This document shows positions 20,419-51,370 of a DNA stretch of 64,000 bases, piece by piece. Positions within the stretch are counted from its first letter, which is position 1. Each line of letters starts with the position of its first letter. The position numbers and the translations under genes are program-made. The stretch is from Bacteroidota bacterium. GTDB lineage: Bacteria > Bacteroidota > Bacteroidia > Chitinophagales > BACL12. The stretch spans positions 417,914 to 481,913 of the forward strand of contig JADJJZ010000003.1 of NCBI GenBank assembly GCA_016706255.1, given 5' to 3'. The notes under the pieces are model-generated. The model searched no databases and was not told the origin of the DNA. It saw nothing but the letters and a program-made list of their open reading frames with translations.

Positions 20419-22848
20419 TTATTTTTTACGAATTCTGTTGAATGTAAAAAAACGTTTCCAAAATGATTTCGGATTAACTGTATCTGAATAATAATCATTG
20501 TATCCGGTATAACCGTAGCCATAACCATATCCATAACCGTAGCCGTAACCATATTCTGTTCCACTGGCATTAGCATCATTTACTACAATACCAATATTGG
20601 TCAAATGATTATCATTATACAAACGATTAACATTTCCGATAAAGTTGCGTTTTGAATAATTTACACGAATCATGTAAATCGCTAAATCTGCTTTTGCCAT
20701 AATAGGAATAGAGTCAGAAACTATACCTACCGGAGGGCTGTCAATTATTACAAAATCGTAAATGGCCAGCAAATCTGCCATTAGTTTATCACATGCCGGT
20801 GATACTAATAACTCGGCCGGATTCGGTGGCACAGGACCTGCAATTAAAATATCGCAACCGGCTTCTTCAAGCGGCTGAATACAATCCTGGAAATTATCTT
20901 TATTAATCAGGATAGTACTAACCCCCTGCTGATTTTTTAATTTAAATGCTTTATGCACTTTTGGTTTCCGTAAATCGAAATCCACCAAAATAACTTTTTT
21001 ACCTGCTGAACTAATTACGTTCGCTAGATTTAATGCCGTAAACGTTTTACCCTCACCACTCACGGTTGAAGTAATTACAATCAATTTGCCTTTGTCATCA
21101 CTTTTAAGGAAATATTGCATATTACTTCGTATTGCTCTAAACGACTCGGCAATATGTGATTTCGGACTTGCAGTTACCACAATTTGTGGGGTGTCCATTT
21201 TCGATTTATTATACATAGGCAATGCACCAAGTAAAGGTACATTTGTTGATTTCTCAACATCAGGAACACCAATAATTGTGCTGTGCAATAGGAAGCGTAA
21301 ATATATATGGGCAAATGATATACCAATACAAATGAGTATCGCTAAACCCCAGATTTTAGCTTTTACCGGTGCTACCAGTGAGCCACGTTCACCTGAATCA
21401 AGAATAATGTAATCACTGCTCATACCCGCAAGCGTAATTTCATATTCCGATTGTTTTTCAAGGAGTAATAAATAATATTTTTCCTTTAAATCATTTAATC
21501 GGGTTAATCGCGCAAATTCAGATTGTTGTTCAGGTAATTTTAAAAATTCACCTTCGTATTTGTTTTTTTCTTCAGTAAGGTAATTATCACGAACCTCAAG
21601 CTTTTTTTCAGCGTTTACAATTGCCTGTTTAAAGTTTTCGGTAACTTTTGAAATTTGTTTGTTGATAGAAGTTAAACGTGGATCTGAAGATGGTACACTG
21701 AGTATGAGCGTTTCTTTTTCTTTGTTTAAATCAACCAGCGAATTGAGGTAAGGCGTAAAATCACTGTATTCTAAATCACCAAAATAATTCGCCAGCGCAT
21801 CAAGGTCACTGTTTTTGTTATTCGTAAAATCTTTAAGCCACTTTAAACTTTTTTGTTCAAGGGTAACCTGAAATTTAGCCTGATCAATCTCATTTAACTT
21901 TTGAACAATATTAGACTCTGCGAGTTCCGGGCTAATTATGAGATTTTCCTTTTTGAAGGTTTTCAACAAATTTTCCTGGTCATACAATTCTTTTTCAAGC
22001 GAATCAATTTGATCTTCAATAAAATTGATTATCATTTCGGCACTTCCGGCTTTTCTTGTTAAACTCATATTCACAATTTCGCCGGCAATCGTATTTACAA
22101 CATCTTTTGTTTTTACAGGATTATTATCCCGATAGTTAATTACAATTTTACCACCATAAAGATTATCTACATCTATCTCTACTTTCCCTTCAATTCGTTC
22201 GGCTTCTCTATTAATGTCATTTATAACAAAATAATAATTTTCATAAAACGACTTTTCTCTTTCTTTTTTCAGGTGGGCAGTAATATTAAATTCAGGAGTG
22301 CTAAATGGTTTTTCAAAATCGAAATTATATTCTATATGTTCTCCGCCTATTTCATATTTTATCACATAATGCGAAGGATCAATTACGTGTAAATCAATTT
22401 TTTTACCAACGATGCTGGAATCCAGCACTTGTACTTTTACGTCAAACGGACTTGCATTATAAACCTCACCCTCCTTTACGCGTTCACGAATAAAATAAGA
22501 TACTTGCAATGGAAGCGATTTCAACGCTTTAATTTTATAACCTTTAGAATTAAGGATGGTCATCTCCTCATTCAAACGGTCAACATTGGTATTGGAAACG
22601 AGTATACCTAAATCAATGGAGTTATCTTTTGATTTATCTTTAAATTGAACATCCGCCTGCGATTCATACAGTGGGCTGGTATATCGCCCTATTAAATAGG
22701 ATGCTACAAATGCTAATATGATATATAAAACTATCCACCAACGCGTTAACCATCCAATCGTTAAAAATAATTTCCAGTTAAACGACTGATCTTCGTTCGC
22801 ATCACTGCTATTTAATATTTCATTTCCATTAGTTGCCATTCCGCACAA
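20419..22848 (-). CDS. wzc: Polysaccharide co-polymerase / BY-kinase (Wzc-like tyrosine autokinase)
   Basis: The N-terminal Wzz-like domain has two TMs and a long coiled coil. The C-terminal kinase has Walker A SGEGKTF, A' VILVDFDLRKP and B FVIIDSPP, plus a Tyr-rich tail. Confidence 0.85.
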   Translation of the reverse strand: MCGMATNGNEILNSSDANEDQSFNWKLFLTIGWLTRWWIVLYIILAFVASYLIGRYTSPLYESQADVQFKDKSKDNSIDLGILVSNTNVDRLNEEMTILNSKGYKIKALKSLPLQVSYFIRERVKEGEVYNASPFDVKVQVLDSSIVGKKIDLHVIDPSHYVIKYEIGGEHIEYNFDFEKPFSTPEFNITAHLKKEREKSFYENYYFVINDINREAERIEGKVEIDVDNLYGGKIVINYRDNNPVKTKDVVNTIAGEIVNMSLTRKAGSAEMIINFIEDQIDSLEKELYDQENLLKTFKKENLIISPELAESNIVQKLNEIDQAKFQVTLEQKSLKWLKDFTNNKNSDLDALANYFGDLEYSDFTPYLNSLVDLNKEKETLILSVPSSDPRLTSINKQISKVTENFKQAIVNAEKKLEVRDNYLTEEKNKYEGEFLKLPEQQSEFARLTRLNDLKEKYYLLLLEKQSEYEITLAGMSSDYIILDSGERGSLVAPVKAKIWGLAILICIGISFAHIYLRFLLHSTIIGVPDVEKSTNVPLLGALPMYNKSKMDTPQIVVTASPKSHIAESFRAIRSNMQYFLKSDDKGKLIVITSTVSGEGKTFTALNLANVISSAGKKVILVDFDLRKPKVHKAFKLKNQQGVSTILINKDNFQDCIQPLEEAGCDILIAGPVPPNPAELLVSPACDKLMADLLAIYDFVIIDSPPVGIVSDSIPIMAKADLAIYMIRVNYSKRNFIGNVNRLYNDNHLTNIGIVVNDANASGTEYGYGYGYGYGYGYGYTGYNDYYSDTVNPKSFWKRFFTFNRIRKK
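20488..20553 (-). repeat. Tyr cluster encoded as (YG)7-Y-T-G-Y-N-D-Y-Y in the Wzc tail
   Basis: Read directly: ata/gta (Tyr, antisense) alternate with acc/gcc/tcc (Gly, antisense) across 20509-20553. There are 11 Tyr in 22 residues. Confidence 0.9.
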
Positions 22849-23637
22849 TTATTTACTAAGATTAACAAAGAAAGCATATATCACAACAATGCTGGAAACT
22901 GTTGTGATAATCGGGGCCAATTCACGAAAAACAGTGGCATTTAATACGGGTTCTATATAAATAATATCATTTGGTTGCACATACGTGCTCGCGGCTTGTA
23001 AGCCTGATATTTCTGAAAGATCAATTATCTGAGTTTGAGGTGCACCATTAATGTTTCTGATAACAGTAATTTTAGCTGCTTTACCATTTTCGGGAACACC
23101 ACCTGCAGCACCAATCGCTTCTATTATTGTCATGTCGGGCCTGTCCAACAAAACTTTACGCGATTCTGAACTCCCGCGATAAACCGTAACAAATTTATTT
23201 ACGACTAATACATTAACATATGGGTCAATGTAATTTTTACTGTAAGCTTCAGTTAATTTTATTTCAGCTTCACGTGTAGTTAGTCCTTGTAATTGTATTA
23301 CTCCGATTATCGGCAAATTAGCTTCACCTTTTGCATCAATCGTGTAACTTAATGAAGTTGTTGACGCCTGCAAGGCAACTTCATTCGATGAAACAATTTG
23401 TGGCTCTATCAATGAATATCCACCCTTTGGAAAAACCAACACATTCAGTACATCACCTTGTGTTATCCTAAAATCAGGGCTTACTGTATCCAAAAAAGTA
23501 GTACCCACATAATTTTTATCTGCCTTAAGCATCCGATTCGGATTAAATACGCTGCAGGCTTGGAAAATTGGTGTTATAAATGCTAAATATAGGATACCCC
23601 TTAAAATAAAGGTCAATTTCTTATCGCTGGTCAACAT
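22849..23637 (-). CDS. wza: Outer-membrane polysaccharide export protein (Wza-like, Poly_export plus SLBB)
   Basis: Lipoprotein-type signal ...IFQACS. GDVLNVLVF and the NxDIIYI-type SLBB motif (QPNDIIYIEP) are present. It sits directly upstream of wzc with 0-nt spacing. Confidence 0.8.
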   Translation of the reverse strand: MLTSDKKLTFILRGILYLAFITPIFQACSVFNPNRMLKADKNYVGTTFLDTVSPDFRITQGDVLNVLVFPKGGYSLIEPQIVSSNEVALQASTTSLSYTIDAKGEANLPIIGVIQLQGLTTREAEIKLTEAYSKNYIDPYVNVLVVNKFVTVYRGSSESRKVLLDRPDMTIIEAIGAAGGVPENGKAAKITVIRNINGAPQTQIIDLSEISGLQAASTYVQPNDIIYIEPVLNATVFRELAPIITTVSSIVVIYAFFVNLSK

Positions 23638-23755
23638 TATCTTTTATTGTGTGCTGTTTTCTAACCCCCTAATAACCAACAAATATATGATTTCAGACTG
23701 ATTCCCAATGGAATTTTGACCTTAAATAAGGTTATTTGGTAGCGGTAATATCTGC

Positions 23756-25672
23756 CTACCGGCTTTTGTCTAAGGCTTCAAAATCAGAATTTTTACTGAT
23801 AAATTCCGGAATAAATGCCTTTAAGGATGTAACAACCTGAATCGTATCTCCCGAATTCAAGGCTAATTTAAGATTATTTATATGTGTTTGCACCACCTCA
23901 CTCGGGTATTGTGTAGTTATCGCAATTTTAATTTTGTGATGATGTGTAGGTAAGGTATTTTCATTTGTATTGAGCAATTCTTCATGTAATTTTTCGCCCG
24001 GACGTAATCCGGTGAAAATAAACGGAATATCTTTTTCCGGCTCCAGACCGCTCAATAGCACCATTTTTCTTGCCAAATCAATAATTTTTACCGGTTCACC
24101 CATATCAAATAGGTATAATTCGCTGGTTTTACCCATTGTGGCAGCCTCGAGCACTAACTGACAAGCTTCTGCAATGGTCATAAAATATCTGGTTACTTCA
24201 GGGTGCGTTATTGTAAGTGGTCCACCCGCTTCAATTTGTTTACTAAAGTAATTTACTACAGAACCATTACTACCCAATACATTTCCAAACCGTGTAGTAG
24301 TAAATACCGTTTTAATGGATGTATCTTTCGATTTATCCTGAACATAAATTTCGGCAGCCCTTTTTGTTGCACCCATTACATTTGTCGGATTAACTGCCTT
24401 GTCAGTTGATATCATAACAAATTTTTCAACCGCATTTGAAATTGCAAGGTCTACCAGATTTTTTGTCCCGAAAATGTTTACATCAATCGCTTCAATTACA
24501 TTTTGTTCCATTAATGGAACGTGTTTGTAAGCCGCTGCATGAAAAATAATTTGCGGTTTATAATTTGTAATGATTTGTTCTAAACGTTTGTAATTGGTAA
24601 TATCACAAATAACATATACGATACTGCAATTATTGTTATTTAATTTAAAAAACAAATCCATTTTCACATCAAATAAAGCACTCTCTGCCTGGTCTAATAA
24701 AATAAGCTGACCTGGTTGAAACTTTAAGATTTGTTTCACCATTTCACTGCCAATTGAGCCGGCAGCTCCGGAAATTAGAATGGTTTTTCCCGAAAAATTA
24801 TTTTTTAATTTTTCATTTTCAAGCAAAATAGGCTCCCTGCCTAAAAGGTCTTCAATGTTAATATTTTTAATTTGTTGTAAACTCAATTGACCGTTAATCC
24901 AATCGGTAACAGGAGGCACAGACTTAACGCTGATCTGATTTTCAAGGCAATAAGCAACCACTTCATTTTTACGGTTTATTTCTATATCGTTAATGCCAAT
25001 TATCAATTCTTCAATGGCGTATTTACTTAAAAGGGTGCTTAATTTTTTTGAAGAATAAATTTTTATCCCTTCAATTGTCTTATTGATTTTAGACGCATTG
25101 TCATCTAAAAATGCAATAACAGAATAATTGGTATTTGTATCATTTTTTAACGCCTGTAAAACACTTAACCCTCTTCTTCCTGCACCATAAATAACAACAG
25201 GAATAGGGGTTATTTTATGCCTGTTCGCCTGATAAAAAAATACTTTTATACCATATCGGCTGAAAATTAAAAGCGAAATACTTAATGCAGCATGAATAAT
25301 GGCAATAGCAATCGGTAATATTCCAGGTGTAAAATAATATGTTTTACTTAATCCGGAAATAATTATTACTAAAAGTGTGGCAGCTAATCCTGCTTTTATT
25401 AAACGCAGCGCATCTGCAATGCCGGAGTGACGAATTATTCCATCGAATGATTTAAAGGCAATAAAACTAATTCCAAAAAGTGCCGTTGTTAAAAAGGTAT
25501 CACCCAGGTAATCTTTAAATGAAATTGCAGCTACATTAAAATTATATCGCAAAATATAGGCGACTCCATAGGTGAATATGGTAATGATAATATCAAAACC
25601 AAACACTACCCATTTGGATAAAATGCGTGTACCGAATTCACGGTTTATATAATTGTTCCACCTTTCGGTCAT
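23756..25672 (-). CDS. Membrane-anchored UDP-HexNAc 4,6-dehydratase family protein (CapD/PglF/WbpM-like)
   Basis: 638 aa with 4-5 N-terminal TMs followed by an extended SDR domain (ILISGAAGSIGSEM, FHAAAYKHVP). Confidence 0.85.
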   Translation of the reverse strand: MTERWNNYINREFGTRILSKWVVFGFDIIITIFTYGVAYILRYNFNVAAISFKDYLGDTFLTTALFGISFIAFKSFDGIIRHSGIADALRLIKAGLAATLLVIIISGLSKTYYFTPGILPIAIAIIHAALSISLLIFSRYGIKVFFYQANRHKITPIPVVIYGAGRRGLSVLQALKNDTNTNYSVIAFLDDNASKINKTIEGIKIYSSKKLSTLLSKYAIEELIIGINDIEINRKNEVVAYCLENQISVKSVPPVTDWINGQLSLQQIKNINIEDLLGREPILLENEKLKNNFSGKTILISGAAGSIGSEMVKQILKFQPGQLILLDQAESALFDVKMDLFFKLNNNNCSIVYVICDITNYKRLEQIITNYKPQIIFHAAAYKHVPLMEQNVIEAIDVNIFGTKNLVDLAISNAVEKFVMISTDKAVNPTNVMGATKRAAEIYVQDKSKDTSIKTVFTTTRFGNVLGSNGSVVNYFSKQIEAGGPLTITHPEVTRYFMTIAEACQLVLEAATMGKTSELYLFDMGEPVKIIDLARKMVLLSGLEPEKDIPFIFTGLRPGEKLHEELLNTNENTLPTHHHKIKIAITTQYPSEVVQTHINNLKLALNSGDTIQVVTSLKAFIPEFISKNSDFEALDKSR

Positions 25673-25813: not shown

Positions 25814-26944
25814 TTAGGCAGTTGCTGTTTCCAGTAAAGTGCAGATTTGATCTAACTGAGATTCTGTTAGTGCAGAGCCCGACGGTAAGCAAAGGCCCTT
25901 ATTAAATAGGGTTTCACTAATACCTGTTATAAAAGCAGGATATGATTTAAAGACAGGCTGCAGATGCAATGGTTTCCATAGCGGACGACTTTCAATATTA
26001 TGCTTTTCGAGTTCTTGCCTGAAATATTCAGGTGAATGCGTAATTTCTTTATTATTAATTTGTAAAGTAGTTAGCCAGCGATTTGAAAAATAATGCGCAG
26101 GTTCATTTAAAAATTCAAAATGACCGGAACCACCTAACCTGTTTTGGTAGTACGAAAAAATATTTCTTCGTGCGGTGATACGTTGTGGCAACACTTCCAT
26201 CTGGCCCCTGCCAATTGCGGCACAAATATTACTCAGCCTGTAATTATAGCCAATTTGCGAATGCTGGTAATGTGGTGCTGCATCTCTTGCTTGTGTAGCC
26301 AAAAATCTTGATTTTTTTATCGCTTCATCATTGTTTGAAATAAGTGCTCCACCACCGGATGTTGTAATTATTTTATTTCCATTAAACGACAAAATTCCGT
26401 AGCTGCCCAAAGTGCCTGTTAATTTATTATTAATTTTTGAGCCTAACGATTCTGCAGCATCTTCAATTACCGGTATTCCATGTGCGTTTGCAATTTGTAA
26501 CAGTTCATCCATTTTTGCAGGCATACCATATAAATGAACAATAATTATTGCTTTTGGTTTTTTATTTTGACGCAAACAAAATTGAATGGCTTCTTCCAAC
26601 TGCTCCGGGTCCATATTCCATGTTTCCGGTTCGCTGTCTACAAAAACAGGTATTGCCTTTTGATAAATTATTGGATTTGCTGATGCTGAAAAGGTGAACG
26701 AGGGACAAATTACATAATCATTCTGTTGAACATTTAATAAAATTAACGCAAGATGTAAAGCTGCCGTGCCTGATGATAATGCCGCACACGATGTAATAGG
26801 TAAATAATTTTGAATTGCTGTTTCAAATGCATCTACATGCGGGCCAAGCGGAGCAATCCAATTGGTATCAAAGGCATTTTGGATATACTCCATTTCTTTA
26901 GCCCCCATATGGGGAGGAGATAAATATATTCTTTGATTTTCCAT
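25814..26944 (-). CDS. DegT/DnrJ/EryC1/StrS family sugar aminotransferase (PglE/WcfR-like)
   Basis: 376 aa with SGTAALHLAL and FNGNKIITTSGGGAL (PLP-Lys context). Confidence 0.85.
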   Translation of the reverse strand: MENQRIYLSPPHMGAKEMEYIQNAFDTNWIAPLGPHVDAFETAIQNYLPITSCAALSSGTAALHLALILLNVQQNDYVICPSFTFSASANPIIYQKAIPVFVDSEPETWNMDPEQLEEAIQFCLRQNKKPKAIIIVHLYGMPAKMDELLQIANAHGIPVIEDAAESLGSKINNKLTGTLGSYGILSFNGNKIITTSGGGALISNNDEAIKKSRFLATQARDAAPHYQHSQIGYNYRLSNICAAIGRGQMEVLPQRITARRNIFSYYQNRLGGSGHFEFLNEPAHYFSNRWLTTLQINNKEITHSPEYFRQELEKHNIESRPLWKPLHLQPVFKSYPAFITGISETLFNKGLCLPSGSALTESQLDQICTLLETATA

Positions 26945-26962
26945 CTGCTGTTTTTTGTATGC

Positions 26963-27580
26963 TTAAATATTTTTATGATTACGCCGCACAATATCAAGAT
27001 CTGCTAATTGTGAACGAGGGTCAGAAACTACACCACTTCGCCGCAAAACATATTTAACGGTTTTAATTACAATTTGTACATCTGTTTTTAAACGGATGTT
27101 TTTTACATAGGTAATATCGTATTGTAAGCGTGTATCCCAGTCAATAGTGTTTCTCCCGTTTACCTGTGCAAGTCCGGTAATTCCGGGTTTTACTAAATGC
27201 CGTTGATGCTCAGTTGTTGTATAATATGGCAGGTATTTAATTAATAATGGCCTCGGACCAATCCAACTCATTTGCCCGAATAAAATATTAAATAGTTGAG
27301 GTAATTCATCCAGTGACGTGCTGCGTAAAAATGTGCCAGCTTTGGTAATACGATGTTTATCACTTGCATAATTATTTTCTTTTTCAGGCAACATCGTAAT
27401 AAATTTATATATGGTAAAAATGCGCTCGTTTTTGCCAACTCGTTTTTGCACGAAAATAATATGACCCTTAAAATTGATAAAACAAAATAGACTAATAACC
27501 AGCATTAATGGAGAAAGTATAATAACTGCCATTAATGCAAATACAAAATCCAATAGCGGCTTTATGATATTACGATACAT
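26963..27580 (-). CDS. Small undecaprenyl-phosphate sugar-1-phosphate transferase (PglC/WcfS-like initiating enzyme)
   Basis: MYRNIIKPLLDFVFAL...SPL TM helix. KFITM, DELPQLFNIL, SWIGPRP and PGITGLAQV motifs are present. The internal ATG at 27580 is preferred over the maximal start at 27622. Confidence 0.85.
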   Translation of the reverse strand: MYRNIIKPLLDFVFALMAVIILSPLMLVISLFCFINFKGHIIFVQKRVGKNERIFTIYKFITMLPEKENNYASDKHRITKAGTFLRSTSLDELPQLFNILFGQMSWIGPRPLLIKYLPYYTTTEHQRHLVKPGITGLAQVNGRNTIDWDTRLQYDITYVKNIRLKTDVQIVIKTVKYVLRRSGVVSDPRSQLADLDIVRRNHKNI

Positions 27581-39343: not shown

Positions 39344-39345
39344 TG

Positions 39346-42574: not shown

Positions 42575-43117
42575 TTATTGAAATAAAGGCCTGTGCTTTT
42601 TAGTATATAATAATTTACTTTCCCTAACCCCTATTGGTTTAGCCGGCATGCCGCCAACTATTACCATCGGCTCAATCGATTTAGTTACTACAGCACCTGC
42701 GGCAACTACAGCGCCTCTGCTTATTTTAATTCCGGGCAATATGGTAACTCTGGTACTAATCCAAACAAAATCCTCAATTATAACCTCGCCACCGCTGTCT
42801 TTATGATAATCATCATGAACATCATGTTCCAATGTCCAGATATTTGTTTCCTGCGCTATATCAACGTTATTGCCAATAGTTAATTTGGCATTTCTGCCAT
42901 CTAATAGCACACGTTGATTGAATACATTATTATCGCCAATAAAAATATTACGCGGATTTCTAAATGTGACACCCATTAAAAAGGAATTGTTTTTACCAAT
43001 ACTGCCAAATAGTGGTTTGAAAAACAACAACCTGATATGGTGCGAAGGTATGTTTGTTATGCACCTGTTAATTATATACAGGTAAAATGAATAAATGAAA
43101 TAATTTATCTTTTTCAT
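42575..43117 (-). CDS. Left-handed beta-helix (hexapeptide-repeat) acyl/acetyltransferase
   Basis: Hexapeptide repeats (IGDNNVFNQRVLLDG, IGNNVDIAQ, VWISTRVTILPGIKISRGAVVAAGAVV). Confidence 0.8.
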   Translation of the reverse strand: MKKINYFIYSFYLYIINRCITNIPSHHIRLLFFKPLFGSIGKNNSFLMGVTFRNPRNIFIGDNNVFNQRVLLDGRNAKLTIGNNVDIAQETNIWTLEHDVHDDYHKDSGGEVIIEDFVWISTRVTILPGIKISRGAVVAAGAVVTKSIEPMVIVGGMPAKPIGVRESKLLYTKKHRPLFQ

Positions 43118-44384
43118 ACCTGCATAGTTAAAACCGCTGCTAATGCGTCAAACGATTGAACTGTAAATCGTGCAGCGGTTTTTTTATTGAAATCTAAATA
43201 TTTGTCAGATTGAATATCCTTCAATGTTGCGATTAACTGGGATTCTGATGTTATCACATTCAATGGGTTATCAGTTATCAAATACTTTTCATTTTGATAC
43301 TGATGAATAAAATGATATAAACTAATTGCCGCATTGTTATAAGTTGTGATATCCAATATAAAAGAGGGTGTATTTGTAAAGCATGCTTCTAATCCCAGCG
43401 TTGTGCCAAGATGAAAAAAGCTACAGCATTATTTATGGATGTGAATTTTGAAATAATGTCTTCGTCTTTTATGGATAAATCGGTTTGTTTGTAACTGTTG
43501 TCTAAAACCACATTACTTTTCTTTAATAATGAATCATACATAGCCCAGTTACTAAAATTCGGATAAGGTCGAACATACAATTTATAATCAGGGTAAACTT
43601 GTGCTATACAATCAGCAAGTTTACCAATTATAATTACTTCTTGTTCAACTAATTCCGGTATACCAATTCCACAACCAAAATAAAAGTAAGGATTTTGATT
43701 TTGGTTAGATGTTGTGCTACGAAGAAATTGCTCAATGTAACCCAATTGTGTAGAACCGAAAATGGTAATGTGCTCAGCAGGAACACCTTGTAACTCCATC
43801 ACATCATTTGCAATATCTTGATTCCATACCAAATATTGCACACGTTTTGAAAATCGCACATGCTTGCACGCGTGATCCCAGCTATAAACATAAACCTGGG
43901 TTGGTATTTGCTCCCTAACTAATCGGGCAAATAGATAGTCGTCGTATATTTCAGTAAAGGCAATCATTTTATCTACCCCGCTTAAATCTGTTTTGCCTTT
44001 ATAGTCTATCGTATTCAAGTAAAAATCGTATGAAATAAAATGTGGTGCTGCCTGCTGATATTTTAATAATTGCTCAGCCTTTTTCCTTTGATTAATATCT
44101 TTTAGTCCAACACCTTTGTATGCCTCCATCAGGTAATAATTTTTCACCGATTTAGGTAGGCGCTTAAACAATAAATATAATCGCGTATAAAAAATATTTT
44201 TTTTTGTGGTTAGATGTTCATCTATAATTCTGCATTCCATACCGGGAATCATGAACTTTTGTATTAACTGTTCATGTTCTTTTCTTATAAAAACAACCAC
44301 TTTGTGATTTATGCATATGCTTTTGATTAATGCACGAACATCATTTCTGAAATCAAAAAAAGTAAGCATTAACCCAATTGTCAT
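43114..44384 (-). pseudogene. GT-B-like transferase (family unknown) split by a frameshift in an A6/T6 homopolymer at 43414-43419
   Basis: ORF 43389-44384 stops 8 codons after the T-run. The frame of ORF 43114-43356 is open back to 43428 and reads ...FFHLGTTLGLEACFTNTPSFILDITTYNN, a typical GT-B C-terminal motif. One extra T would fuse the two. Confidence 0.55.
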
Positions 44385-45913
44385 GTAACGATGTCGCTTG
44401 CTGGTTTGTGTTGCACCGAACTAAACTGACCAAAAATATTTTCGGTCTTAATAATTTTATAGAATATAAAACTTAACAGCCCTAAAAAGCCTACAAATAG
44501 GATTGCCTGCAACGTGAGATTATGTGCATAATTTGCTACGAGGTAATTTATCCCAAAGGCAATTGCAATTAAGCAAACTACCAACAATAGGAACCCCTTG
44601 TTGATTTTGGTGAATTTAACCGGATATTCAAATTTCTTATAAAATAAGGTATATGAAAAAATAAACTCACAAATAATTTGAACCAAAGTGCCGATGATAA
44701 CTCCCTGAAAACCTAGCAGTTTTGAAAGTGTTATACTTAGTATTACATTAATAAGAACAGAAATCAACGAAAACTTTACAATAATACGTATATAATTACT
44801 GTGTAAAAGAGTTCGATAAAATGGTGTATATAACATTGAAATGCATAAACCTGCCAAACTTAAAATGCCCCATTTGATATAGATATTGTAGATGTCTGTT
44901 CCCAGCCAAAGTGTTAATACCTGATTATAAAAAATTGCAGTTAGTAATGTTATGCTTAGCATAAATAGGAATGCAGTTCTAATTACCTTTCCAGTGAAAT
45001 TAAAATATGCGGTTTTGTCTTTTTCCAGATTTAAACGGGTAAGCATTGGCTGTATTACCGGGAATGAGATTGATGTGACTCCTCTCAATACAAAATAAGG
45101 TTTTGTGATAATCGTATAAATAGTAACTGAGGCAACATCTAAAACACTGGCAATTATAAAACGATCGGCTTGAACAGCCATAAAACTTATTAGCGACAAT
45201 AAAAAAACCTGCATAGAATATCCAGAATACGGTGTAGAAAAAATGGACTTTCCGCTTAGCAATTTTATGGATAATCCTTTTAATAACTTTTTAATTGAAA
45301 CCAGATATAAGTCACAAAGTAAAGTAAGTAAGGTGGTTAGTGTTGTAAGTGCGGCAAAAATATTTAAAGTGATGAGGTTAGTAAATTGAATACCTAAAAC
45401 AATTAACAGGTTTAAACCAATAATGGCTAATTGATATTTATTGCGGATTAGAAAATGTTTATTGGCAGTTAAAATATTTTGTGGCACAGCATCAAGTGTA
45501 ATCAAAAAAGAATTTATGGCAGCTAAACTGAACAATAGCAATGATGATTTTGCTGTTTCACTTGATATGTTAAATAATGTATCACTAAAAAATCCAATCG
45601 CCAACATAAAAATGGCAATTACAAAGGCAGCGTAAAAATTAAACGAGATTCCTGCACTGATGGCTTCCTGGTATTTGCCTGAATTTTGATCGGCATTATA
45701 TTCTATAGTATATCTGAAAATAGATTTTGAGGAACCGAAGTCAAAAGCAGCCATTGCTGAGGATAAACCAAAACATATAATATACAACCCATATTGTTCG
45801 GCACCGTAAGCATGCAAACATACCGGAAGCGCATATATTCCTAAAAGGATACGAACAGCAAAAATGAAATAGTTGCTGCTGATATTTTCAATAAATTTTT
45901 TGGACTCGCTCAT
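44381..45913 (-). CDS. wzx: MOP-superfamily oligosaccharide flippase (Wzx)
   Basis: 510 aa with ~14 TMs, an N-terminal amphipathic segment and an operon context typical of Wzx. Confidence 0.75.
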   Translation of the reverse strand: MSESKKFIENISSNYFIFAVRILLGIYALPVCLHAYGAEQYGLYIICFGLSSAMAAFDFGSSKSIFRYTIEYNADQNSGKYQEAISAGISFNFYAAFVIAIFMLAIGFFSDTLFNISSETAKSSLLLFSLAAINSFLITLDAVPQNILTANKHFLIRNKYQLAIIGLNLLIVLGIQFTNLITLNIFAALTTLTTLLTLLCDLYLVSIKKLLKGLSIKLLSGKSIFSTPYSGYSMQVFLLSLISFMAVQADRFIIASVLDVASVTIYTIITKPYFVLRGVTSISFPVIQPMLTRLNLEKDKTAYFNFTGKVIRTAFLFMLSITLLTAIFYNQVLTLWLGTDIYNIYIKWGILSLAGLCISMLYTPFYRTLLHSNYIRIIVKFSLISVLINVILSITLSKLLGFQGVIIGTLVQIICEFIFSYTLFYKKFEYPVKFTKINKGFLLLVVCLIAIAFGINYLVANYAHNLTLQAILFVGFLGLLSFIFYKIIKTENIFGQFSSVQHKPASDIVT

Positions 45914-45947
45914 ATCAAATTGCCTTCAAAGCAATTCCGTGCAACGA

Positions 45948-46424
45948 TTATTCAGATAGAAGATAATCGTCTACAAATTCTCTTATAGCTCCTTCGCCAC
46001 CATTTTTTTGTAAATGGATAATTCCTGGAATCGCTTTAACGTGTTTTGTTGAATTGGCAGGACAAGCAGCAATGCCTACAGCCATCAACAAGTCAATACA
46101 ATTAATATCGTCACCAATATAGGCGACATCTTTAATAGAAATATTTTCTTTTACACATATTTCTAAAGCGGCTGCTAGTTTACCTTTAAAGCCCGCCCCC
46201 TGATATACATAATCAACTTTTAATTTTGCAGCCCTGCGTTCAACTATTTTTGTATGCTCAGTGGTTATAATTCCTGTTTTAATGTTGGCCTCCCTTAATA
46301 AATTAAAAGCCATGCCATCATGGGTATTGAATTTTTTAAATTCATCGCCATTTTCAGTATAATACATTCCGGCGTCAGTCATTACACCGTCAACATCAGT
46401 CAAAAATAATTTTATTTTATGCAT
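45948..46424 (-). CDS. HAD-IIIA C0-type phosphatase, KdsC / KDN-9-P / Neu5Ac-9-P phosphatase family
   Basis: LFLTDVDGVMTD is HAD motif I. GIITTE and YIGDDINC are motifs II and IV. Length 158 aa. Confidence 0.8.
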   Translation of the reverse strand: MHKIKLFLTDVDGVMTDAGMYYTENGDEFKKFNTHDGMAFNLLREANIKTGIITTEHTKIVERRAAKLKVDYVYQGAGFKGKLAAALEICVKENISIKDVAYIGDDINCIDLLMAVGIAACPANSTKHVKAIPGIIHLQKNGGEGAIREFVDDYLLSE

Positions 46425-46429
46425 AAAAA

Positions 46430-47401
46430 TTATTGTGGATAGGGAGCATTAAATAAATTGTAGTAATAATTTATGGTTGCACATTCATCAGTATTGGTGA
46501 TATTCTCCCAATATTTAATGTAACGTTTTGAATTGCGTTTGTAACTATGTCGTGTTATTGGACGTTGATCGTTTGATGTAATTGATTCAAGGTGCGATTG
46601 AGTGACATAATTTTTAGAAAATTGCAATTCTTGAGAAAGTGCAGCCACTTCTTGTGGTGGATTACTCATCAATGTTTCAAAATGAACAATTTTGTAATTC
46701 TTACGATTTGCAGATTGCACATTTAAAAAGTAATGCAGCAAAGCAGTTTGCAGTGCCATCCTTTCTAAAGGCGACATCTGTGCAATTTTGTTTATAGTGA
46801 TATTGTCGCGATGAATATCATATCGTTTAAAATAAGGATGGGTATAAATGATATTAAGTCGCTGAATAGGGTCCCATTTTAATTTATTTAAACTGGTAAC
46901 TATACTCAATGGATTTCGCATCAGGATAATTCCCAAATGATCCCCGAGCAACGGTGCTGCATCTTCCAGGCAAAACGACAAACCCGGATCCTTAATGATT
47001 ATTCTGCGTTTTCTTAATGGTAACGATTTGTGTAACGCCAGCTTCGTAAGGTATGGATACCAACGTCCACTTTTTCTGTAATGTGACCAGTTTTTAACCG
47101 CTACTATTTCTTTATATATTGAACTGATTTGTGCTGAATTAAAAGGCTGATTGCTGTTTATTTTTGCAAGTTCAGAATTCCAAAGTATTGTATTTCTTAA
47201 AAACGGTTCGTGATATAAAAATACTTTGTTGGAATTGAATATTTCTTCAACTGTGGTAGTTGCAGATCGTGGTGCTCCCGTAATAATAACCGGTAAACCA
47301 TTTTCTACCGGGCTGACAGACTTAAATGCATAATCGATTAAATCATCCAATACACACGTTAAGCGTTGTGGTATTTTGTCTATTCTTACCATGCTGTCCA
47401 C
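46430..47401 (-). CDS. Sulfotransferase-fold protein (putative PAPS-dependent)
   Basis: VIITGAPRSATTT is 5'-PSB-like and ILMRNPLSIVTS is 3'-PB-like. It is embedded between the SDR and HAD genes. Confidence 0.45.
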   Translation of the reverse strand: MDSMVRIDKIPQRLTCVLDDLIDYAFKSVSPVENGLPVIITGAPRSATTTVEEIFNSNKVFLYHEPFLRNTILWNSELAKINSNQPFNSAQISSIYKEIVAVKNWSHYRKSGRWYPYLTKLALHKSLPLRKRRIIIKDPGLSFCLEDAAPLLGDHLGIILMRNPLSIVTSLNKLKWDPIQRLNIIYTHPYFKRYDIHRDNITINKIAQMSPLERMALQTALLHYFLNVQSANRKNYKIVHFETLMSNPPQEVAALSQELQFSKNYVTQSHLESITSNDQRPITRHSYKRNSKRYIKYWENITNTDECATINYYYNLFNAPYPQ

Positions 47402-48207
47402 CCTCCGTCAACTGTCAATACACTTCCTGTCATATAACTTGAAGCATCCGATACTAAAAATGTAAATGGTCCTGTTACTTCCGATTTATCAGACATTCTA
47501 CCCATCGGACTTAATTCAGCAAAGTTTTTAAGAAATGCTTCATCATGATTATTAAATATGCCATGCGGTGCTATTGCATTGCACCGAATTTTATTTTTGG
47601 CATAAAAAGTTGCGATATATCGGGTTAAATTCGGAATTACTGATTTAGTTATAACATAATCAACTGGCTTAAATTGCTGATTGCCATCTCCAAAATCATA
47701 TAAACCCTGATTAGGGGCAACTAATGAATAGGTTGAAGCTACATTTATAATATTGCCATAACCTTGTTTCAACATTTGTTTAATTGCTAATTGCGTTATC
47801 AGAACTAAACCTTTAACATTTACATCAAATGATTTTTGTAATAAGTCTAGCGGAAAGTTTTCAAACCTTGTTGAATTATTTTCCGCATTCGCGCTTTTAT
47901 CAAATTTTGCATCAATGGCTGCATTATTTATCAGCACATCAATACGTTTAAATTTTTTAATAGCATTTTGTATACAGGCGTTGCACGACTTCTCCTTTGT
48001 AATATCAGTTATGCAAACCAACGTGTTTTTAGAATAGCCTAATGCTTTTAATTCTGCTTCAGCTTTTAAGGCTAACCGTTTATTGCTATCTGCCAACACA
48101 ACTTTAGCACCTTGCATAGCAAAACTTTTAACCAATGTCATGCCAATCAATCCAAAAGCACCGGTTAACAAAATCACTTTGTTTTCAATTGTAACAATTT
48201 CATTCAT
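47386..48207 (-). CDS. Classical SDR family oxidoreductase
   Basis: LTGAFGLIG, NNAA and the Y-x3-K context (YVITK). Confidence 0.8.
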   Translation of the reverse strand: MNEIVTIENKVILLTGAFGLIGMTLVKSFAMQGAKVVLADSNKRLALKAEAELKALGYSKNTLVCITDITKEKSCNACIQNAIKKFKRIDVLINNAAIDAKFDKSANAENNSTRFENFPLDLLQKSFDVNVKGLVLITQLAIKQMLKQGYGNIINVASTYSLVAPNQGLYDFGDGNQQFKPVDYVITKSVIPNLTRYIATFYAKNKIRCNAIAPHGIFNNHDEAFLKNFAELSPMGRMSDKSEVTGPFTFLVSDASSYMTGSVLTVDGGWTAW

Positions 48208-49168
48208 TTTGGCACAAATTAATAATTACCGCTGACTCTTCAATTTGTTGCAGCGAAATGGCTGTCACATTATCGTTGTTTATTTCACTAATAAAATGGG
48301 ATAATTCCGTTTTAAATAAATCATTTCTGTCAAAATCAGCAATTGTTTCTACCTGCTTGATTCCTTTGTGGTGTATGGTTATTGTTGCAGAGAAGTATTC
48401 TGCCTCCACCGTTGCATCTTCAAAAATAAAAATGTATTTGCGTTGGGGTATTTGCTCCAGGTAGTTCAAATGTACCTGCGCTGTGATGTCATTTTGATAT
48501 GAAATTTGAAAGTCGGCAACACTTTCTACATCAATATTTAAATTACTGCTATAACCGAATTTTTTTGCAACTGTTTTAATCTTACTGTCTGCCAACCAGT
48601 TAACTAAATCCAGGTCATGACTCAATGTTAAAGCAACACCACCACCCATATTTTTATTGGCAGCATAAGATGTTTTATAATCTTCATAAGGATGCCAATC
48701 CGGCAAATAGCTGCCCCAATGTGTTCTAATACTATGCAATTTCCCATATTGATTAGATTTTATCATCGCTTTTATCTGAATCATATGCGGATGAAAGCGC
48801 ATCATATAGGCAACCTGAACTAACTTGCGATACTTATTTACTGCTGCATTTAATTGTTCAAGATGTTCATTTGAGTGGGAGAGGGGCTTTTCTACCAAAA
48901 CATGAAATCCGGCTTCCAAACATAACAGCGTTTGCTCAAGATGTTGATTTGTTGGGGTGCAAATTATTGCGAATAAAATTTTTTCTTTAGGTATGGATGA
49001 CCAATCTGTGTGTATAACAATTGCTGAATTCGTTATATTCCTAAAAGGTAAATTGCGCTGACGATAAACATGAATATTTTGATAACCCATTGCTAACAGA
49101 TTGCCGATATGCCGCTCTCCAATTGAACCGGCACCAATAACTAAAACACCCTCCTTCTTATTCATCAA
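48200..49168 (-). CDS. Gfo/Idh/MocA family NAD(P)-dependent oxidoreductase
   Basis: VIGAGSIGERH and VEKPLS signatures. Confidence 0.85.
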   Translation of the reverse strand: MMNKKEGVLVIGAGSIGERHIGNLLAMGYQNIHVYRQRNLPFRNITNSAIVIHTDWSSIPKEKILFAIICTPTNQHLEQTLLCLEAGFHVLVEKPLSHSNEHLEQLNAAVNKYRKLVQVAYMMRFHPHMIQIKAMIKSNQYGKLHSIRTHWGSYLPDWHPYEDYKTSYAANKNMGGGVALTLSHDLDLVNWLADSKIKTVAKKFGYSSNLNIDVESVADFQISYQNDITAQVHLNYLEQIPQRKYIFIFEDATVEAEYFSATITIHHKGIKQVETIADFDRNDLFKTELSHFISEINNDNVTAISLQQIEESAVIINLCQNE

Positions 49169-49886
49169 ATTTGATACAATCGCTGTTTTGAATTAATTCT
49201 TCGGCTTTATAAAAACTTGCAACATCATCAATATCTATCGCATATTTTCTTTCAATTAAATAGGGCAATATTTTTTTTCCGCTCATACTGTGCTGCTCTG
49301 TTATTGCAGCGGTTTTTATAATATCCAAAGTTCCTGTTTGCCAGTAAACAGTTGGTAGTTTTTGCCTTGGCTGATTATATGGTTCTTCAATATGCTGCAA
49401 TTTCAACAACGGTTCCATGGCATCGTTATTATTCACGTTGAGCAACCACATTTTAAATGGCGTTATGGGCGATTCAGTTATTGATCGAACGGAATCGGCA
49501 TCACTGTTTAATAATTTTGTTATTGCTTCATCTATCCATCCTGAAAACCGAATTGGAGATGTTGGTCTTAACTGAACAATGATATCCGGAACATAATTTT
49601 CATTTTCTTTCATCCATTTTAACTGATGTTCAAAAACAACAAGATCTGTTGCTACATCATCAGCAAGATGCGCCGGACGCATAAAGGGAATGGCCGCTCC
49701 GTATTGTTTACCAACCGCTGCAATTTCTTCACTGTCGGTATTTAAGGTTATTCTTGTAATTAATTTACTTGCTTGTGCTGCCGCAATACTATATGCCAAT
49801 AATGGATGTTGCAATAGTGGTTTGATGTTTTTACCGGGTAAACCTTTACTGCCGCCTCTTGCCGGAATTATTGCCAGAATTTCCAT
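49158..49886 (-). CDS. Acylneuraminate (CMP-ulosonic acid) cytidylyltransferase family protein
   Basis: AIIPARGGSKGLPGKN N-terminus and LRPTSP motif. Length 242 aa. Confidence 0.85.
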   Translation of the reverse strand: MEILAIIPARGGSKGLPGKNIKPLLQHPLLAYSIAAAQASKLITRITLNTDSEEIAAVGKQYGAAIPFMRPAHLADDVATDLVVFEHQLKWMKENENYVPDIIVQLRPTSPIRFSGWIDEAITKLLNSDADSVRSITESPITPFKMWLLNVNNNDAMEPLLKLQHIEEPYNQPRQKLPTVYWQTGTLDIIKTAAITEQHSMSGKKILPYLIERKYAIDIDDVASFYKAEELIQNSDCIKFDE

Positions 49887-50761
49887 TAATTATCTGATTT
49901 TAATTTTTTACGCTGCACTAATTCTACCGGTAAAATTTCTGATGCTTTATATTGTAATGCTTCATGTGTATGTTGCAAATCACGAATCAGTTTTTGTAAT
50001 CCGGGAACTTCCAAACTTGCCGCATGATCTGTTCCTTTCCAGGTGCGATCTTTTGTAAAATGGCGTTCTATCCACGTAGCTCCTAAGGTATAGGCTGCTA
50101 TATCTATTGCAATACCTAAATGATGGCCGCTAAATCCAACGGATTGCACTTGCTCACCATATTGATCATGTAGTTTTTTAATTTCCAATAAACAAATTTC
50201 ATTAAATTGAATCGGGTAACCACTTGTGCAACTATATAGTACCAATCGATTTTTTAATTTTTCAGAATTAAATAAATCGATAATGGTTTTTATTTCACTG
50301 CTGGTAGTCATGCCTACCGAAATATGAACATCTCCCAAATAATTATCGCGAATTAATTCCAATAATTGAATATTATGATTACAGGCAGATGGAATTTTAA
50401 TAAAATCAGGCTGCAATGCGATAATTTCGTTTGCGCTGGTAATGTCCCAAACCGATGCACTGTAGCCGATGCCAATACTTTCAGCATACAATTTTAGTTC
50501 GCCATGTTGTTCAGCAGTAAATTCAAGATATTCACGGTGCTGACCGTAAGTGTTACCATAACTTTGCCAAGGTTCTGGATGTGGTGCGTTGTATTGTGTA
50601 TCACTTAATAATTCTTTGGGGTTTCGTTTTTGAAATTTTGCATAATCCGCGCCACATTCTTTTGCCAAACGAATTAATTCTTTTGCAATTTCAAAATTCC
50701 CCATATGATTACAACCAATTTCTGCAATCACTTTCGGAGCCTGATAATTAAATTGAAACAT
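49886..50761 (-). CDS. NeuB-family PEP-condensing ulosonic acid synthase, TIM-barrel only (no C-terminal SAF domain)
   Basis: IAEIGCNHMGN, AKFQ, KIPS, SGHHLG and ERHFT...DHAASL motifs. At 291 aa it ends right after the barrel. Confidence 0.8.
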   Translation of the reverse strand: MFQFNYQAPKVIAEIGCNHMGNFEIAKELIRLAKECGADYAKFQKRNPKELLSDTQYNAPHPEPWQSYGNTYGQHREYLEFTAEQHGELKLYAESIGIGYSASVWDITSANEIIALQPDFIKIPSACNHNIQLLELIRDNYLGDVHISVGMTTSSEIKTIIDLFNSEKLKNRLVLYSCTSGYPIQFNEICLLEIKKLHDQYGEQVQSVGFSGHHLGIAIDIAAYTLGATWIERHFTKDRTWKGTDHAASLEVPGLQKLIRDLQHTHEALQYKASEILPVELVQRKKLKSDN

Positions 50762-50827
50762 TTTTTTACAGCTTCGCCTCCTCAGTCACATAAGCGTGTT
50801 GAGCAGACAGGTTTTAATTAATAATAT

Positions 50828-51370
50828 TTATTCAGCTGCGTTGTTATTCCACAACACAATTGAATTATCAAGATAGCCTTTAGCCTTCCAGCCCGGATAT
50901 GATTCCAGACTCAAAACCAGGGCTGATACTTTTCGGTTAATAAGCGCTTCGGTTTTTTTAACCCAATAACTTAGTTTTTCATTATCTACCTCACCAACAA
51001 TTACCAGTTCAATTACACCGGTATCTTTCCCTTCCGCATAATCGCCGGTTATAAATGCATAACTGATATCGCCAATCTGATTTACGATATTTTCTACTAC
51101 TTTATCTAATCCAAGATATTTTCTAACTAAACTTTTTAATTCTGGAAAAAGCGGATGTTTTTCATTTGCCCGATATTGAATGGTATTGCCTTCATCAAAA
51201 GAAACTAAAAATCCGGCTTTGGAAAGTTTGTTGAGTTCCAAACGAACTGCATTGGTAGATTCATGCATCTCCTTCGCCAAACCACGAAGATGGGCAGACG
51301 ATTTACTGTTTGAAAAAAATTTCAACAACAGTTTAATACGTGTTCTTGATGTTATTAAGGATTCTAACAC
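50828..51370 (-). CDS. Winged-helix (ArsR/MarR-like) transcriptional regulator at the head of the polysaccharide operon
   Basis: N-terminal RTRIKLLLKFF...HLRGLAKEMHESTNAVRLELNKLSKAGFL is an HTH. It is the first gene of the co-directional block. GTG start. Confidence 0.55.
   Translation of the reverse strand: MLESLITSRTRIKLLLKFFSNSKSSAHLRGLAKEMHESTNAVRLELNKLSKAGFLVSFDEGNTIQYRANEKHPLFPELKSLVRKYLGLDKVVENIVNQIGDISYAFITGDYAEGKDTGVIELVIVGEVDNEKLSYWVKKTEALINRKVSALVLSLESYPGWKAKGYLDNSIVLWNNNAAE

Follow-up and report, generated by a model that had tools for sequence, protein, structure and literature searches.

A divergent sulfotransferase gene within a predicted Kdn-type nonulosonic-acid cassette of a putative Wzx/Wzy polysaccharide locus from an uncultured sludge Chitinophagales bacterium

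The window analysed here is a stretch of 64,000 nucleotides of DNA (contig JADJJZ010000003.1, positions 417,914 to 481,913, assembly GCA_016706255.1) from a Bacteroidota bacterium of the order Chitinophagales. Between positions 20419 and 51370 (31 kb) it is filled by 26 consecutive minus-strand open reading frames (ORFs) of 158-809 aa, called g26 to g1 in the direction of reading. We consider it fairly probable that they form a capsule or exopolysaccharide locus that uses the Wzx/Wzy route and exports its product through Wza and Wzc, and in which a cassette for a nonulosonic acid (NulO) of the ketodeoxynononic acid (Kdn) type encloses a sulfotransferase gene, g21. Judged from the genes, the polymer is probably acidic and carries a sialic-acid-like sugar as well as sulfate. 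The architecture is otherwise that of a standard polysaccharide locus; the combination of genes is unusual.

Family calls were made with Pfam and NCBIfam hidden Markov models (HMMs), and transmembrane (TM) segments were estimated by counting hydrophobic segments. For the pathway proposed below, these tools give the family of each protein, from which its substrate was inferred. Nearly all of the enzyme families listed in the initial annotation of this DNA are confirmed in this way (NeuB and CMP-ulosonic-acid enzymes, an AsnB-type amidotransferase, a medium-chain dehydrogenase/reductase (MDR)-GFO fusion, a heparinase-fold protein, an acetyltransferase and a 4-amino-sugar priming block). The acidic, sulfated, amidated and amine-bearing product envisaged there is a reasonable expectation from these families, now extended by a likely O-acetylation and narrowed to the Kdn type.

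The sulfotransferase gene and its cassette

g21 (46430-47392) encodes a predicted 3′-phosphoadenosine 5′-phosphosulfate (PAPS)-type sulfotransferase of a narrow, divergent subfamily. It matches PF13469 with 29.7-29.8 bits, above the gathering threshold of 27. Only seven close relatives (58-96% identity) were found among 5.8 billion clusters; a profile search added twelve homologues, down to 20% identity, and all 19 carry PF13469 and/or PF00685. The established motifs of this enzyme class are the 5′-phosphosulfate-binding (5′-PSB) loop and the 3′-phosphate-binding (3′-PB) motif. In an alignment of 20 sequences spanning 20-96% identity, P41, R42, S43 and T46 of the 5′-PSB loop (GAPRSATT) are invariant, as are S167 of the 3′-PB motif (RNPLSIVTS), E62 and K134, while R159 is conserved in at least 90%. 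An AlphaFold (AF2) model built from this alignment reached a pLDDT of 90.1 and a pTM of 0.89 (from the single sequence, pLDDT was 32 and the model unusable). Its top 50 PDB matches by Foldseek are all sulfotransferases (best E 1.3e-6), among them the CurM sulfotransferase domain, TPST1/2, cytosolic SULTs and Stf1/Stf9. The closest folds are those of TPST and CurM-type domains (PDB 3AP3, 5WRJ and 4GBM; E 1e-6 to 1e-4, TM-score 0.45-0.6), although sequence identity to them is 11-14%, and neither sequence nor family profile searches of the PDB returned a meaningful match. The spacing of R42, E62 and R159...S167 is presumably like that of the 5′-PSB arginine, the glutamate base and the 3′-PB arginine and serine of TPST2.

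With the Pfam threshold passed, the PAPS motifs invariant and a modelled fold that matches sulfotransferases only, the prediction of a genuine PAPS-type sulfotransferase is solid. The initial annotation had recognized this fold in g21, and assignment to an unrelated family did not materialise. The acceptor is presumably a sugar rather than a peptide or an acyl chain, and because the protein has neither a TM segment nor a signal peptide, it would have to act before flipping.

It is possible, though we think it unlikely, that g21 does not decorate the exported polysaccharide at all, but serves a small molecule or another glycoconjugate or is inactive, and that the product is unsulfated. The Pfam score lies barely above its threshold, the 5′-PSB loop has an Ala where Gly is usual, a near-identical copy (cluster at ≥90% identity) is labelled a hypothetical protein by NCBI, and genes for PAPS synthesis (ATP sulfurylase, APS kinase) are absent among the window ORFs scanned. 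However, the catalytic and PAPS-binding positions remain invariant in homologues as distant as 20% identity, and the gene is set tightly in the operon: it overlaps the upstream gene g22 by 7 nt if translation begins at the likely ATG (47392), or by 16 nt with a GTG start (47401), and 5 nt separate it from the downstream gene g20. This position is kept in sister species, and every g21 homologue whose context was examined stands in a polysaccharide locus. The window holds two more sulfotransferase genes, three in all, which makes a supply of PAPS likely.

One of these two belongs to a pair on the plus strand (54560-56427), in which a cytoplasmic CE4 polysaccharide deacetylase with a PgaB-like N-domain overlaps a Sulfotransfer_1 gene by 4 nt. 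Among solved structures, the latter comes closest to the heparan-sulfate glucosamine 3-O-sulfotransferases (E 7e-16 to 6e-11) and to the sulfotransferase domain of NDST1 (E 1e-6), and the arrangement resembles an N-deacetylase/sulfotransferase divided between two genes. The pair is kept beside the locus in sister species (58-71% identity) and may decorate the same polymer or another. The third sulfotransferase-domain gene (1786-2508, plus strand; PF19798 Sulfotransfer_5, 171 bits) lies directly upstream of a class IV aminotransferase of the branched-chain/D-amino-acid type (2510-3391).

The cassette around g21 begins with a short NeuB-family ulosonic-acid (9-phosphate) synthase of 291 aa, g25 (49886-50761; PF03102, 220.5 bits), which lies far below the cut-offs of the NeuB and PseI equivalog models and whose best PDB match is 6NCS, a 290-aa synthase. 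It is followed by a CMP-ulosonic acid synthetase, g24 (49158-49886; PF02348, 80.8 bits), with 152 bits on the PseF model (cut-off 205.7). g23 (48200-49168, likely start ATG 49165) is a GFO/IDH/MocA oxidoreductase with the size and family label of PtmF (PF01408, PF22725). g22 (47386-48207) is a classical short-chain dehydrogenase/reductase (SDR; PF13561, 148 bits) that resembles PtmA; its top NCBIfam match is PRK09186 (171 bits), with FlagModPtmA further down (142 bits), both below cut-off. After g21 comes g20 (45948-46424), a haloacid dehalogenase (HAD) phosphatase of the C0 type, which scores 179.2 bits on the Kdn-9-phosphate phosphatase model NF058599 (cut-off 180).

The phosphatase carries most of the argument for the sugar. 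Its best PDB sequence match is the chain of 3E81, 3E84, 3E8M and 4HGO (144 bits), which we take to be Bacteroides thetaiotaomicron BT1713, whereas KdsC proteins reach at most 95 bits and 4HGN 54.7 bits. Glu and Lys stand opposite positions 56 and 67 of that chain; these are presumably the Kdn-9-phosphate specificity residues reported by Lu et al. (2009), although a literature search on such residues found nothing usable. Since g20 is closest to Kdn-9-phosphate phosphatases, and since NCBIfam finds neither a hydrolysing NeuC/LegG-type epimerase nor, in the cassette, a LegH/PseH N-acetyltransferase, a Kdn-type ulosonic acid is favoured, probably a variant rather than Kdn itself. The oxidoreductases g23 and g22 could epimerise, by oxidation and reduction, either a hexose-phosphate or the nine-carbon sugar.

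The cassette might instead make a legionaminic- or pseudaminic-type acid (Leg, Pse) or Neu5Ac, with g23 and g22 acting as PtmF and PtmA, and with the dehydratase g3 and the aminotransferase g4 feeding a 4-amino-6-deoxy precursor rather than priming. The PtmA-like character of g22 speaks for this, as does the adjacency of a PtmF-sized GFO protein to a CMP-transferase, which recurs in Leg clusters; g4 reaches 381.9 bits on the LegC model (cut-off 420), and PseAc2/LegAc2 is the most abundant NulO in the extracellular polymeric substances (EPS) of sludge (PMC10483923). We nevertheless regard it as a minor possibility. Besides the missing NeuC/LegG and LegH/PseH functions, the 2-epimerase g10 is of the WecB type, with 111 bits on the NeuC model against a cut-off of 235.9. 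Leg and Pse routes require no phosphatase such as g20. g3, g4 and g5 form the classic dehydratase-aminotransferase-phosphoglycosyl transferase priming trio and lie 20 kb from the cassette, and in Telluribacter humicola a related cassette has no DegT-type aminotransferase or PglF-type dehydratase within the ±10 kb fetched.

Beyond the flippase candidate that follows the cassette lies g18 (43114-44384), a conserved protein without a described domain and, by its position after the cassette, a candidate ulosonic-acid transferase. The ORF is broken here (43389-44384, 331 aa, against 423 aa in intact relatives). A run of six T at about 43413-43420 replaces the T7 of six contigs that are 99.3-99.6% identical, and the frameshift removes the invariant HLGTT...E part; the dead 3′ end of the gene accounts for the apparent 271-nt gap at 43118-43388. 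Contigs from two sludge runs have T6 and those from two other runs T7, and the T6 variant is probably real in populations. Explanations range from natural on/off variation and pseudogene formation to a platform-specific homopolymer sequencing error. The g18 family has no match in Pfam, NCBIfam or PDB sequences, and a PDB profile search gave nothing meaningful. A word-index search returned 377 matches and an exhaustive one 564 representatives, including proteins of the cultured Cytophagales Runella, Telluribacter, Rhabdobacter and Persicitalea. Among 16 distant relatives scanned with Pfam, one has a faint Glyphos_transf match and one (P0257) a fused hexapeptide acetyltransferase. Family members stand after a NulO cassette and flippase in three related loci (L007, L010 and L016), directly after the SDR gene in another (L012), and alone in Runella. 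The invariant motifs, YSWDH...RPYP...HLGTTxGLE, are perhaps reminiscent of GT-B transferases that use CMP-sugars and CDP-glycerol. With low confidence, g18 is predicted to be the ulosonic-acid transferase.

Put together, the families suggest the following route. g3 and g4 would make a UDP-4-amino-4,6-dideoxy-HexNAc, which the small phosphoglycosyl transferase g5 would load onto undecaprenyl phosphate. g10, g9, g8 and g7 may supply an N-acetylmannosamine-derived residue, oxidised and amidated to a uronamide type, for addition by the family 4 glycosyltransferase (GT4) g6. In the cassette, g25 would condense phosphoenolpyruvate (PEP) with a hexose-6-phosphate, g20 would remove the 9-phosphate and g24 would add CMP to yield a CMP-activated Kdn-type nonulosonic acid, one centre of which g23 and g22 may alter by oxidation and reduction. 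g21, translationally coupled within the cassette, is predicted to act ahead of flipping and to sulfate either the nonulosonic acid or the repeat unit on its lipid carrier, and g17 to O-acetylate. g18, broken here, is the candidate ulosonic-acid transferase, and g12, g13 and g16 would add the remaining sugars. The putative flippase g19 would then translocate the unit and g11 polymerise it for export by Wzc and Wza. The sequence from Man-6-phosphate and PEP over Kdn-9-phosphate and Kdn to CMP-Kdn is established in B. thetaiotaomicron (PMC6200933).

Several observations weigh against this route. g25 and g24 lie far below every NCBIfam equivalog cut-off, so that the identity of the sugar depends mainly on g20, and two extra oxidoreductases argue that the product is not plain Kdn. 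The function of g18 is pure guilt by association, and because the gene is frameshifted here, this strain may not add the ulosonic acid residue at all. The flippase g19 (44381-45913, 510 aa) is assigned from topology (about 12-14 hydrophobic segments) and position only: it has no Pfam or NCBIfam match even at E 5, and neither BLASTP nor hhalign related it to MurJ or Polysacc_synt flippases. The LMW-PTP and PHP families expected of a Wzb/CpsB phosphatase are not matched by any gene of the block; such an enzyme may be encoded elsewhere in the genome. To these come the missing PAPS genes noted above and the distant homologues of g21, which stand in loci rich in glycosyltransferases with Wzy or Polysacc_synt genes and around which the 9 kb fetched in each direction contain no NulO cassette. 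Low-depth contigs of sludge metatranscriptomes cover much of the 5′ half of the locus, including g21, which is weak evidence of transcription in situ, as such assembled contigs may include DNA carry-over.

Relatives, base composition and origin

Identical or nearly identical copies of the window proteins occur in Chitinophagales/Bacteroidetes metagenome-assembled genomes (MAGs; GCA_016711785.1, GCA_963169285.1 and GCA_030157895.1) and in many activated-sludge and wastewater assemblies, which identifies the host as an uncultured activated-sludge Chitinophagales bacterium. The window also holds genes for proteins with C-terminal sorting domains of the type IX secretion system (14467-16886, minus strand; 3465-4718 and 6725-7351, plus strand), including two tandem VWA-domain proteins, which fit Bacteroidota. 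A profile scan of genome contigs with a shallow g21 alignment recovered two loci only, both from Chitinophagales/Bacteroidetes sludge MAGs.

In sister species in which g21 is 62% (L007-L009 and L013) or 58% (L010) identical, the chromosomal neighbours are the same: kdsA, the LexA-like regulator, the radical SAM gene, the deacetylase with the second sulfotransferase, and an RND pump (orthologues 58-94% identical). The cassette keeps its order, regulator-NeuB-CMP-GFO-SDR-sulfotransferase-HAD-Wzx-g18. Identity falls from 84-94% for kdsA, the LexA-like regulator and the radical SAM gene to 57-89% in the cassette and 41-74% for Wzx, g18 and the glycosyltransferases. g14, g15 and g17 are absent from L007 and L013, which have a PMT_2-like membrane protein instead. 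Conserved flanks around a variable centre are the normal pattern of O-antigen and capsular polysaccharide (CPS) loci.

Further afield, the cassette occurs with other decorations. Telluribacter humicola (GCA_054780935.1, 429-17218; L016) has it without a sulfotransferase but flanked by O-methyltransferase genes, in a Wza-CpsB-Wzc...Wzy locus with CpsB between Wza and Wzc; a putative flippase separates the HAD gene from the g18 homologue, which is followed by a methyltransferase and a hexapeptide acetyltransferase. On the contig L012, a TylF-type methyltransferase gene stands before a NeuB-CMP-GFO-SDR-g18-like cassette (1818-6651), and a g21 homologue of 23% identity follows some 2.7 kb downstream of the cassette. 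The contig L011 encodes a 34%-identical homologue together with three other sulfotransferases, a g18 homologue and a GFO/SDR pair. These arrangements suggest that NeuB-CMP-GFO-SDR(-HAD)-g18 is a widespread NulO module of Bacteroidota with interchangeable decorating enzymes. From the contexts of its homologues, the g21 family appears to be one of polysaccharide-locus sulfotransferases, its closest branch repeatedly tied to the NulO module, which collects lineage-specific sulfo-, methyl- and acetyltransferases.

The initial annotation had judged the part at 35.9-47.4 kb to be more AT-rich than its flanks and had taken this as a hint of horizontal acquisition. The dip is real but small. GC amounts to 33.6% in the centre (35900-47400), to 35.2-35.5% elsewhere in the locus and to 36.7% outside it, against 35.7% for the whole window. 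The centre is among the three lowest of 210 sliding 11.5-kb windows (minimum 33.5%, starting at 35751), and the difference from the rest of the window, 2-3 points, is significant (Mann-Whitney p = 1.6e-4). Recent acquisition as a horizontal island, be it of the block or of the AT-rich centre, seems quite unlikely, even though g14, g15 and g17 are missing from one sister species, where other genes take their place, and Wzx, g18 and the glycosyltransferases have diverged faster (41-57% identity) than the flanks (84-94%). Species with 84-94% identity in housekeeping genes have the same neighbours and the same two fetched ends of the locus, and a difference of 2-3 points is typical of the membrane-protein and glycosyltransferase genes of such loci. 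In addition, the window contains no tRNA gene, and no integrase or transposase family is found among its scanned ORFs of at least 100 aa. The synteny, the lack of mobility genes among the ORFs scanned and the small shift in GC thus give no support to a recent horizontal transfer of the entire block. The locus is chromosomal and probably vertically inherited, and only its central glycosyltransferase/Wzy part is swapped between species, likely by homologous recombination between the conserved flanks, an ordinary event at O-antigen and CPS loci.

Assembly genes, junctions and neighbours

Priming is represented by g3 (23756-25672), a membrane-anchored UDP-HexNAc 4,6-dehydratase of the PglF/WbpM type with a CoA_binding_3 N-domain and three N-terminal hydrophobic segments (PF02719 Polysacc_synt_2, 387 bits), by g4 (25814-26944), a pyridoxal-phosphate-dependent sugar 4-aminotransferase of the DegT/LegC kind (PF01041, 316 bits; TIGR04181, the LegC family, slightly below its cut-off), and by g5 (26963-27622, likely start ATG 27580), a small monotopic phosphoglycosyl transferase with a single N-terminal hydrophobic helix (PF02397 Bac_transf, 199 bits). 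As no N-acetyltransferase gene adjoins the three, a free 4-amine on the priming sugar is possible. g6 (27570-28856) is a WcaI-like GT4 enzyme (PF00534, PF13579; NF007640 WcaI, 124 bits, below cut-off).

The next four genes would prepare the amidated residue. g10 (34767-35915) is a WecB-type, non-hydrolysing UDP-GlcNAc 2-epimerase (TIGR00236, 480.6 bits, cut-off 210). g9 (32665-34770, 701 aa) fuses an MDR domain like that of zinc alcohol dehydrogenases to a GFO/IDH/MocA domain (PF00107, PF08240, PF01408, PF22725), and conspecific copies bear the NCBI name ‘bi-domain-containing oxidoreductase’. g8 (30742-32658) is an AsnB-type glutamine-dependent amidotransferase (TIGR01536, 423.5 bits, cut-off 267) whose N-terminal MCG includes the nucleophile Cys2. 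g7 (28861-30741) is a cytoplasmic heparinase II/III-fold protein (PF16889, 70.5 bits; PF07940, 60.2 bits) without a signal peptide or TM segment; its PDB sequence matches are to heparinase III only (E 4e-9), and it may be a uronate-modifying enzyme with epimerase or lyase-like chemistry. This part of the locus recalls the exopolysaccharide modules of XrtA/PEP-CTERM systems, in which heparinase-fold and oxidoreductase genes accompany TIGR03108. g8 reaches 414.7 bits on that model, and Wzc and g6 match PEP-CTERM-associated models, all below cut-off; unlike those modules, however, no exosortase or PEP-CTERM genes are seen here. A literature search on the heparinase/AsnB combination found nothing usable.

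In the centre, g11 (35915-37198) is the Wzy-type polymerase (PF04932 Wzy_C, 39 bits, gathering threshold 31.7; about nine hydrophobic segments). The genes g12 to g17 are the serotype-variable part. g12 (37191-38294; PF00534, 105 bits) and g16 (41510-42574; PF00534, 53.5 bits) are GT4 enzymes. g13 (38291-39343) is weakly indicated as a GT-B glycosyltransferase by a sub-threshold Glyco_trans_1_4 match (E 0.012) and by weak Gtf3_C matches in the precomputed annotation of its orthologues. g14 (39346-40584) is a polytopic membrane protein with about nine hydrophobic segments and no Pfam or NCBIfam match; though missing from L007 and L013, it is present in L010. g15 (40581-41513) is an extended-SDR NDP-sugar epimerase or dehydratase (PF01370, 160 bits) with every NCBIfam equivalog score below cut-off. 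g17 (42575-43117) is a WcaF-like hexapeptide-repeat O-acetyltransferase (PF00132; NF007797, 77.7 bits, below cut-off) that scores 43.8 bits on the NeuD model, far from its cut-off of 160.8.

The block ends, as had been noted at the outset, with Wza and Wzc. g2 (22849-23637) is a Wza-type outer-membrane polysaccharide export protein (PF02563 Poly_export, 55.3 bits, with SLBB_2), whose hydrophobic N-terminal signal closes with ...FQAC as in lipoproteins. g1 (20419-22848, likely start ATG 22839) is Wzc, a PCP-2a chain-length regulator and BY tyrosine autokinase with Wzz and P-loop domains (TIGR01007, 146.5 bits, cut-off 108), and its C-terminus carries, as a (YG)n tail, the tyrosine cluster YGYGYGYGYGYGY. 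The Wzx/Wzy route first proposed thus has HMM support for Wzy, the phosphoglycosyl transferase, Wza and Wzc, whereas Wzx is placed by topology and position. It is very unlikely that the locus instead makes the O-antigen of lipopolysaccharide, despite its Wzx/Wzy type, its place directly downstream of kdsA and the name ‘O-antigen ligase’ of the Pfam family matched by g11, since Wza and a full Wzc BY-kinase with its tyrosine cluster are hallmarks of capsule or exopolysaccharide export rather than of O-antigen ligation.

ORF coordinates and junctions agree with the early count of about 26 minus-strand genes, many overlapping by 1-16 nt. About half of the junctions overlap: five are ATGA overlaps of 4 nt (six if the frame of g18 is restored), two are TAATG overlaps of 1 nt, and longer overlaps measure 8, 8, 11 and 16 nt. 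Three junctions abut, and the true gaps are only 118, 141, 66, 34 and 18 nt. A TAnnTTTG motif, like the Bacteroidota -7 element, lies in each of the three largest true gaps, upstream of g26 (TAAATTTG), of g3 (in the 141-nt gap) and of g2. As no terminator-like coding-strand hairpin was found in the intergenic gaps of the block, it may comprise one long unit from g26 to g4, plus g3 and g2-g1. Scans for sigma-70-type promoters, a consensus unsuited to Bacteroidota, gave no clear excess of sites relative to shuffled controls, with one region scoring lower than the mean of the shuffles and the other exceeding it by about 2 sd, and an Rfam scan of the window was empty. At the 3′ end, g1 and the plus-strand uvrA (ending at 20418) run towards each other without a spacer, and no hairpin resembling a terminator separates them.

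The first gene, g26 (50828-51370), had been read as a winged-helix regulator. A small conserved gene is indeed there, 79-84% identical in relatives, but its matches to ArsR-like proteins are weak (E 9e-4 and 3e-3); it has no Pfam match at E ≤1e-3, and PHROGs and relaxed Pfam searches gave weak, inconsistent helix-turn-helix (HTH) hints only. g26 is therefore a possible DNA-binding regulator. CPS regulation of the UpxY/UpxZ type, with a NusG-like first gene, was rejected, as g26 has no NusG or KOW match and only the weak ArsR-like HTH.

Upstream, the same-strand run continues with kdsA (51449-52288) and a LexA-like HTH-S24 regulator (52529-53395). The latter is divergent from a radical SAM gene at 53377 that belongs to the PA0069 family (451.8 bits, cut-off 360). 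The pair (52529-54471) is probably related to DNA damage and unrelated to the polysaccharide locus, and the radical SAM gene was rejected as a member of it on account of its family and its divergent orientation.

Known systems and significance

Several described loci come close to this one. In B. thetaiotaomicron, CMP-Kdn is made by the Kdn-9-phosphate synthase BT1714, the Kdn-9-phosphate phosphatase BT1713 and a CMP-Kdn synthetase (Wang et al. 2008, cited in PMC6200933 and PMC10483923). The present cassette likewise unites a NeuB-family synthase, a C0 HAD phosphatase and a CMP-transferase, but adds a GFO oxidoreductase, an SDR and a sulfotransferase, and its synthase is short (291 aa). In the Leg clusters of Campylobacter, Vibrio fischeri and Plesiomonas, PtmF is a 326-aa oxidoreductase adjoining PtmA and LegF (PMC4481668). 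The PtmA/PtmF/LegF/LegI set is mirrored here by a NulO synthase, a CMP-NulO synthetase, an oxidoreductase of about 320 aa and an SDR of about 255-270 aa; in contrast to those clusters, the cassette lacks equivalents of LegB, LegH, LegG and PtmE, has a phosphatase instead, and scores below cut-off on the Leg and Pse models.

Sulfated polysaccharides are known from the Wzx/Wzy-type synechan (xss) locus of Synechocystis PCC 6803, which has sulfotransferases within the locus (PMC8205485), and from CPS clusters of Vibrio sp. KMM 8419 (PMC11641403) and Cobetia marina, the latter with an ABC transporter and its own PAPS genes (PMC11766843). As in the present block, polysaccharide assembly genes and cytoplasmic PAPS-type sulfotransferases share one cluster, but these organisms belong to other phyla and none has a sulfotransferase inside a NulO cassette. 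No described locus with that arrangement was found in the literature, nor any from Chitinophagales, and a metagenome survey of mats reported zero sulfotransferase matches in Bacteroidetes genomes (PMC9723792). The enzyme mix is nevertheless not as rare as first claimed, given the Wzx/Wzy loci with sulfotransferases in cyanobacteria and the other sulfated capsule clusters.

High-molecular-weight EPS of granular and activated sludge contain Kdn, other nonulosonic acids and sulfated glycoconjugates, but sulfotransferases for them could not be found by homology, and the missing genes have been named as a bottleneck (PMC10483923). The locus, from a lineage detected in many wastewater metagenomes, provides a concrete candidate in g21, whose divergent subfamily is physically linked to a Kdn-type cassette within a putative Wzx/Wzy capsule locus. 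It also draws attention to the NeuB-CMP-GFO-SDR-HAD cassette and the domain-less g18 family, both uncharacterised and both widespread in Bacteroidota. A bolder possibility, which we regard as speculative and rather improbable, is that g21 acts on the nonulosonic acid itself, whether free, CMP-activated or lipid-linked, to give a sulfated, O-acetylated Kdn-type sugar for which the g18 family would be the dedicated transferase. If so, this common sludge lineage of Chitinophagales would make a bacterial equivalent of the sulfated sialic acids known from animals and, together with the CE4/heparan-sulfate-type sulfotransferase pair, the locus would offer a genetic basis for the co-occurring signals of Kdn and ‘sulfated glycosaminoglycan-like’ material in sludge EPS.

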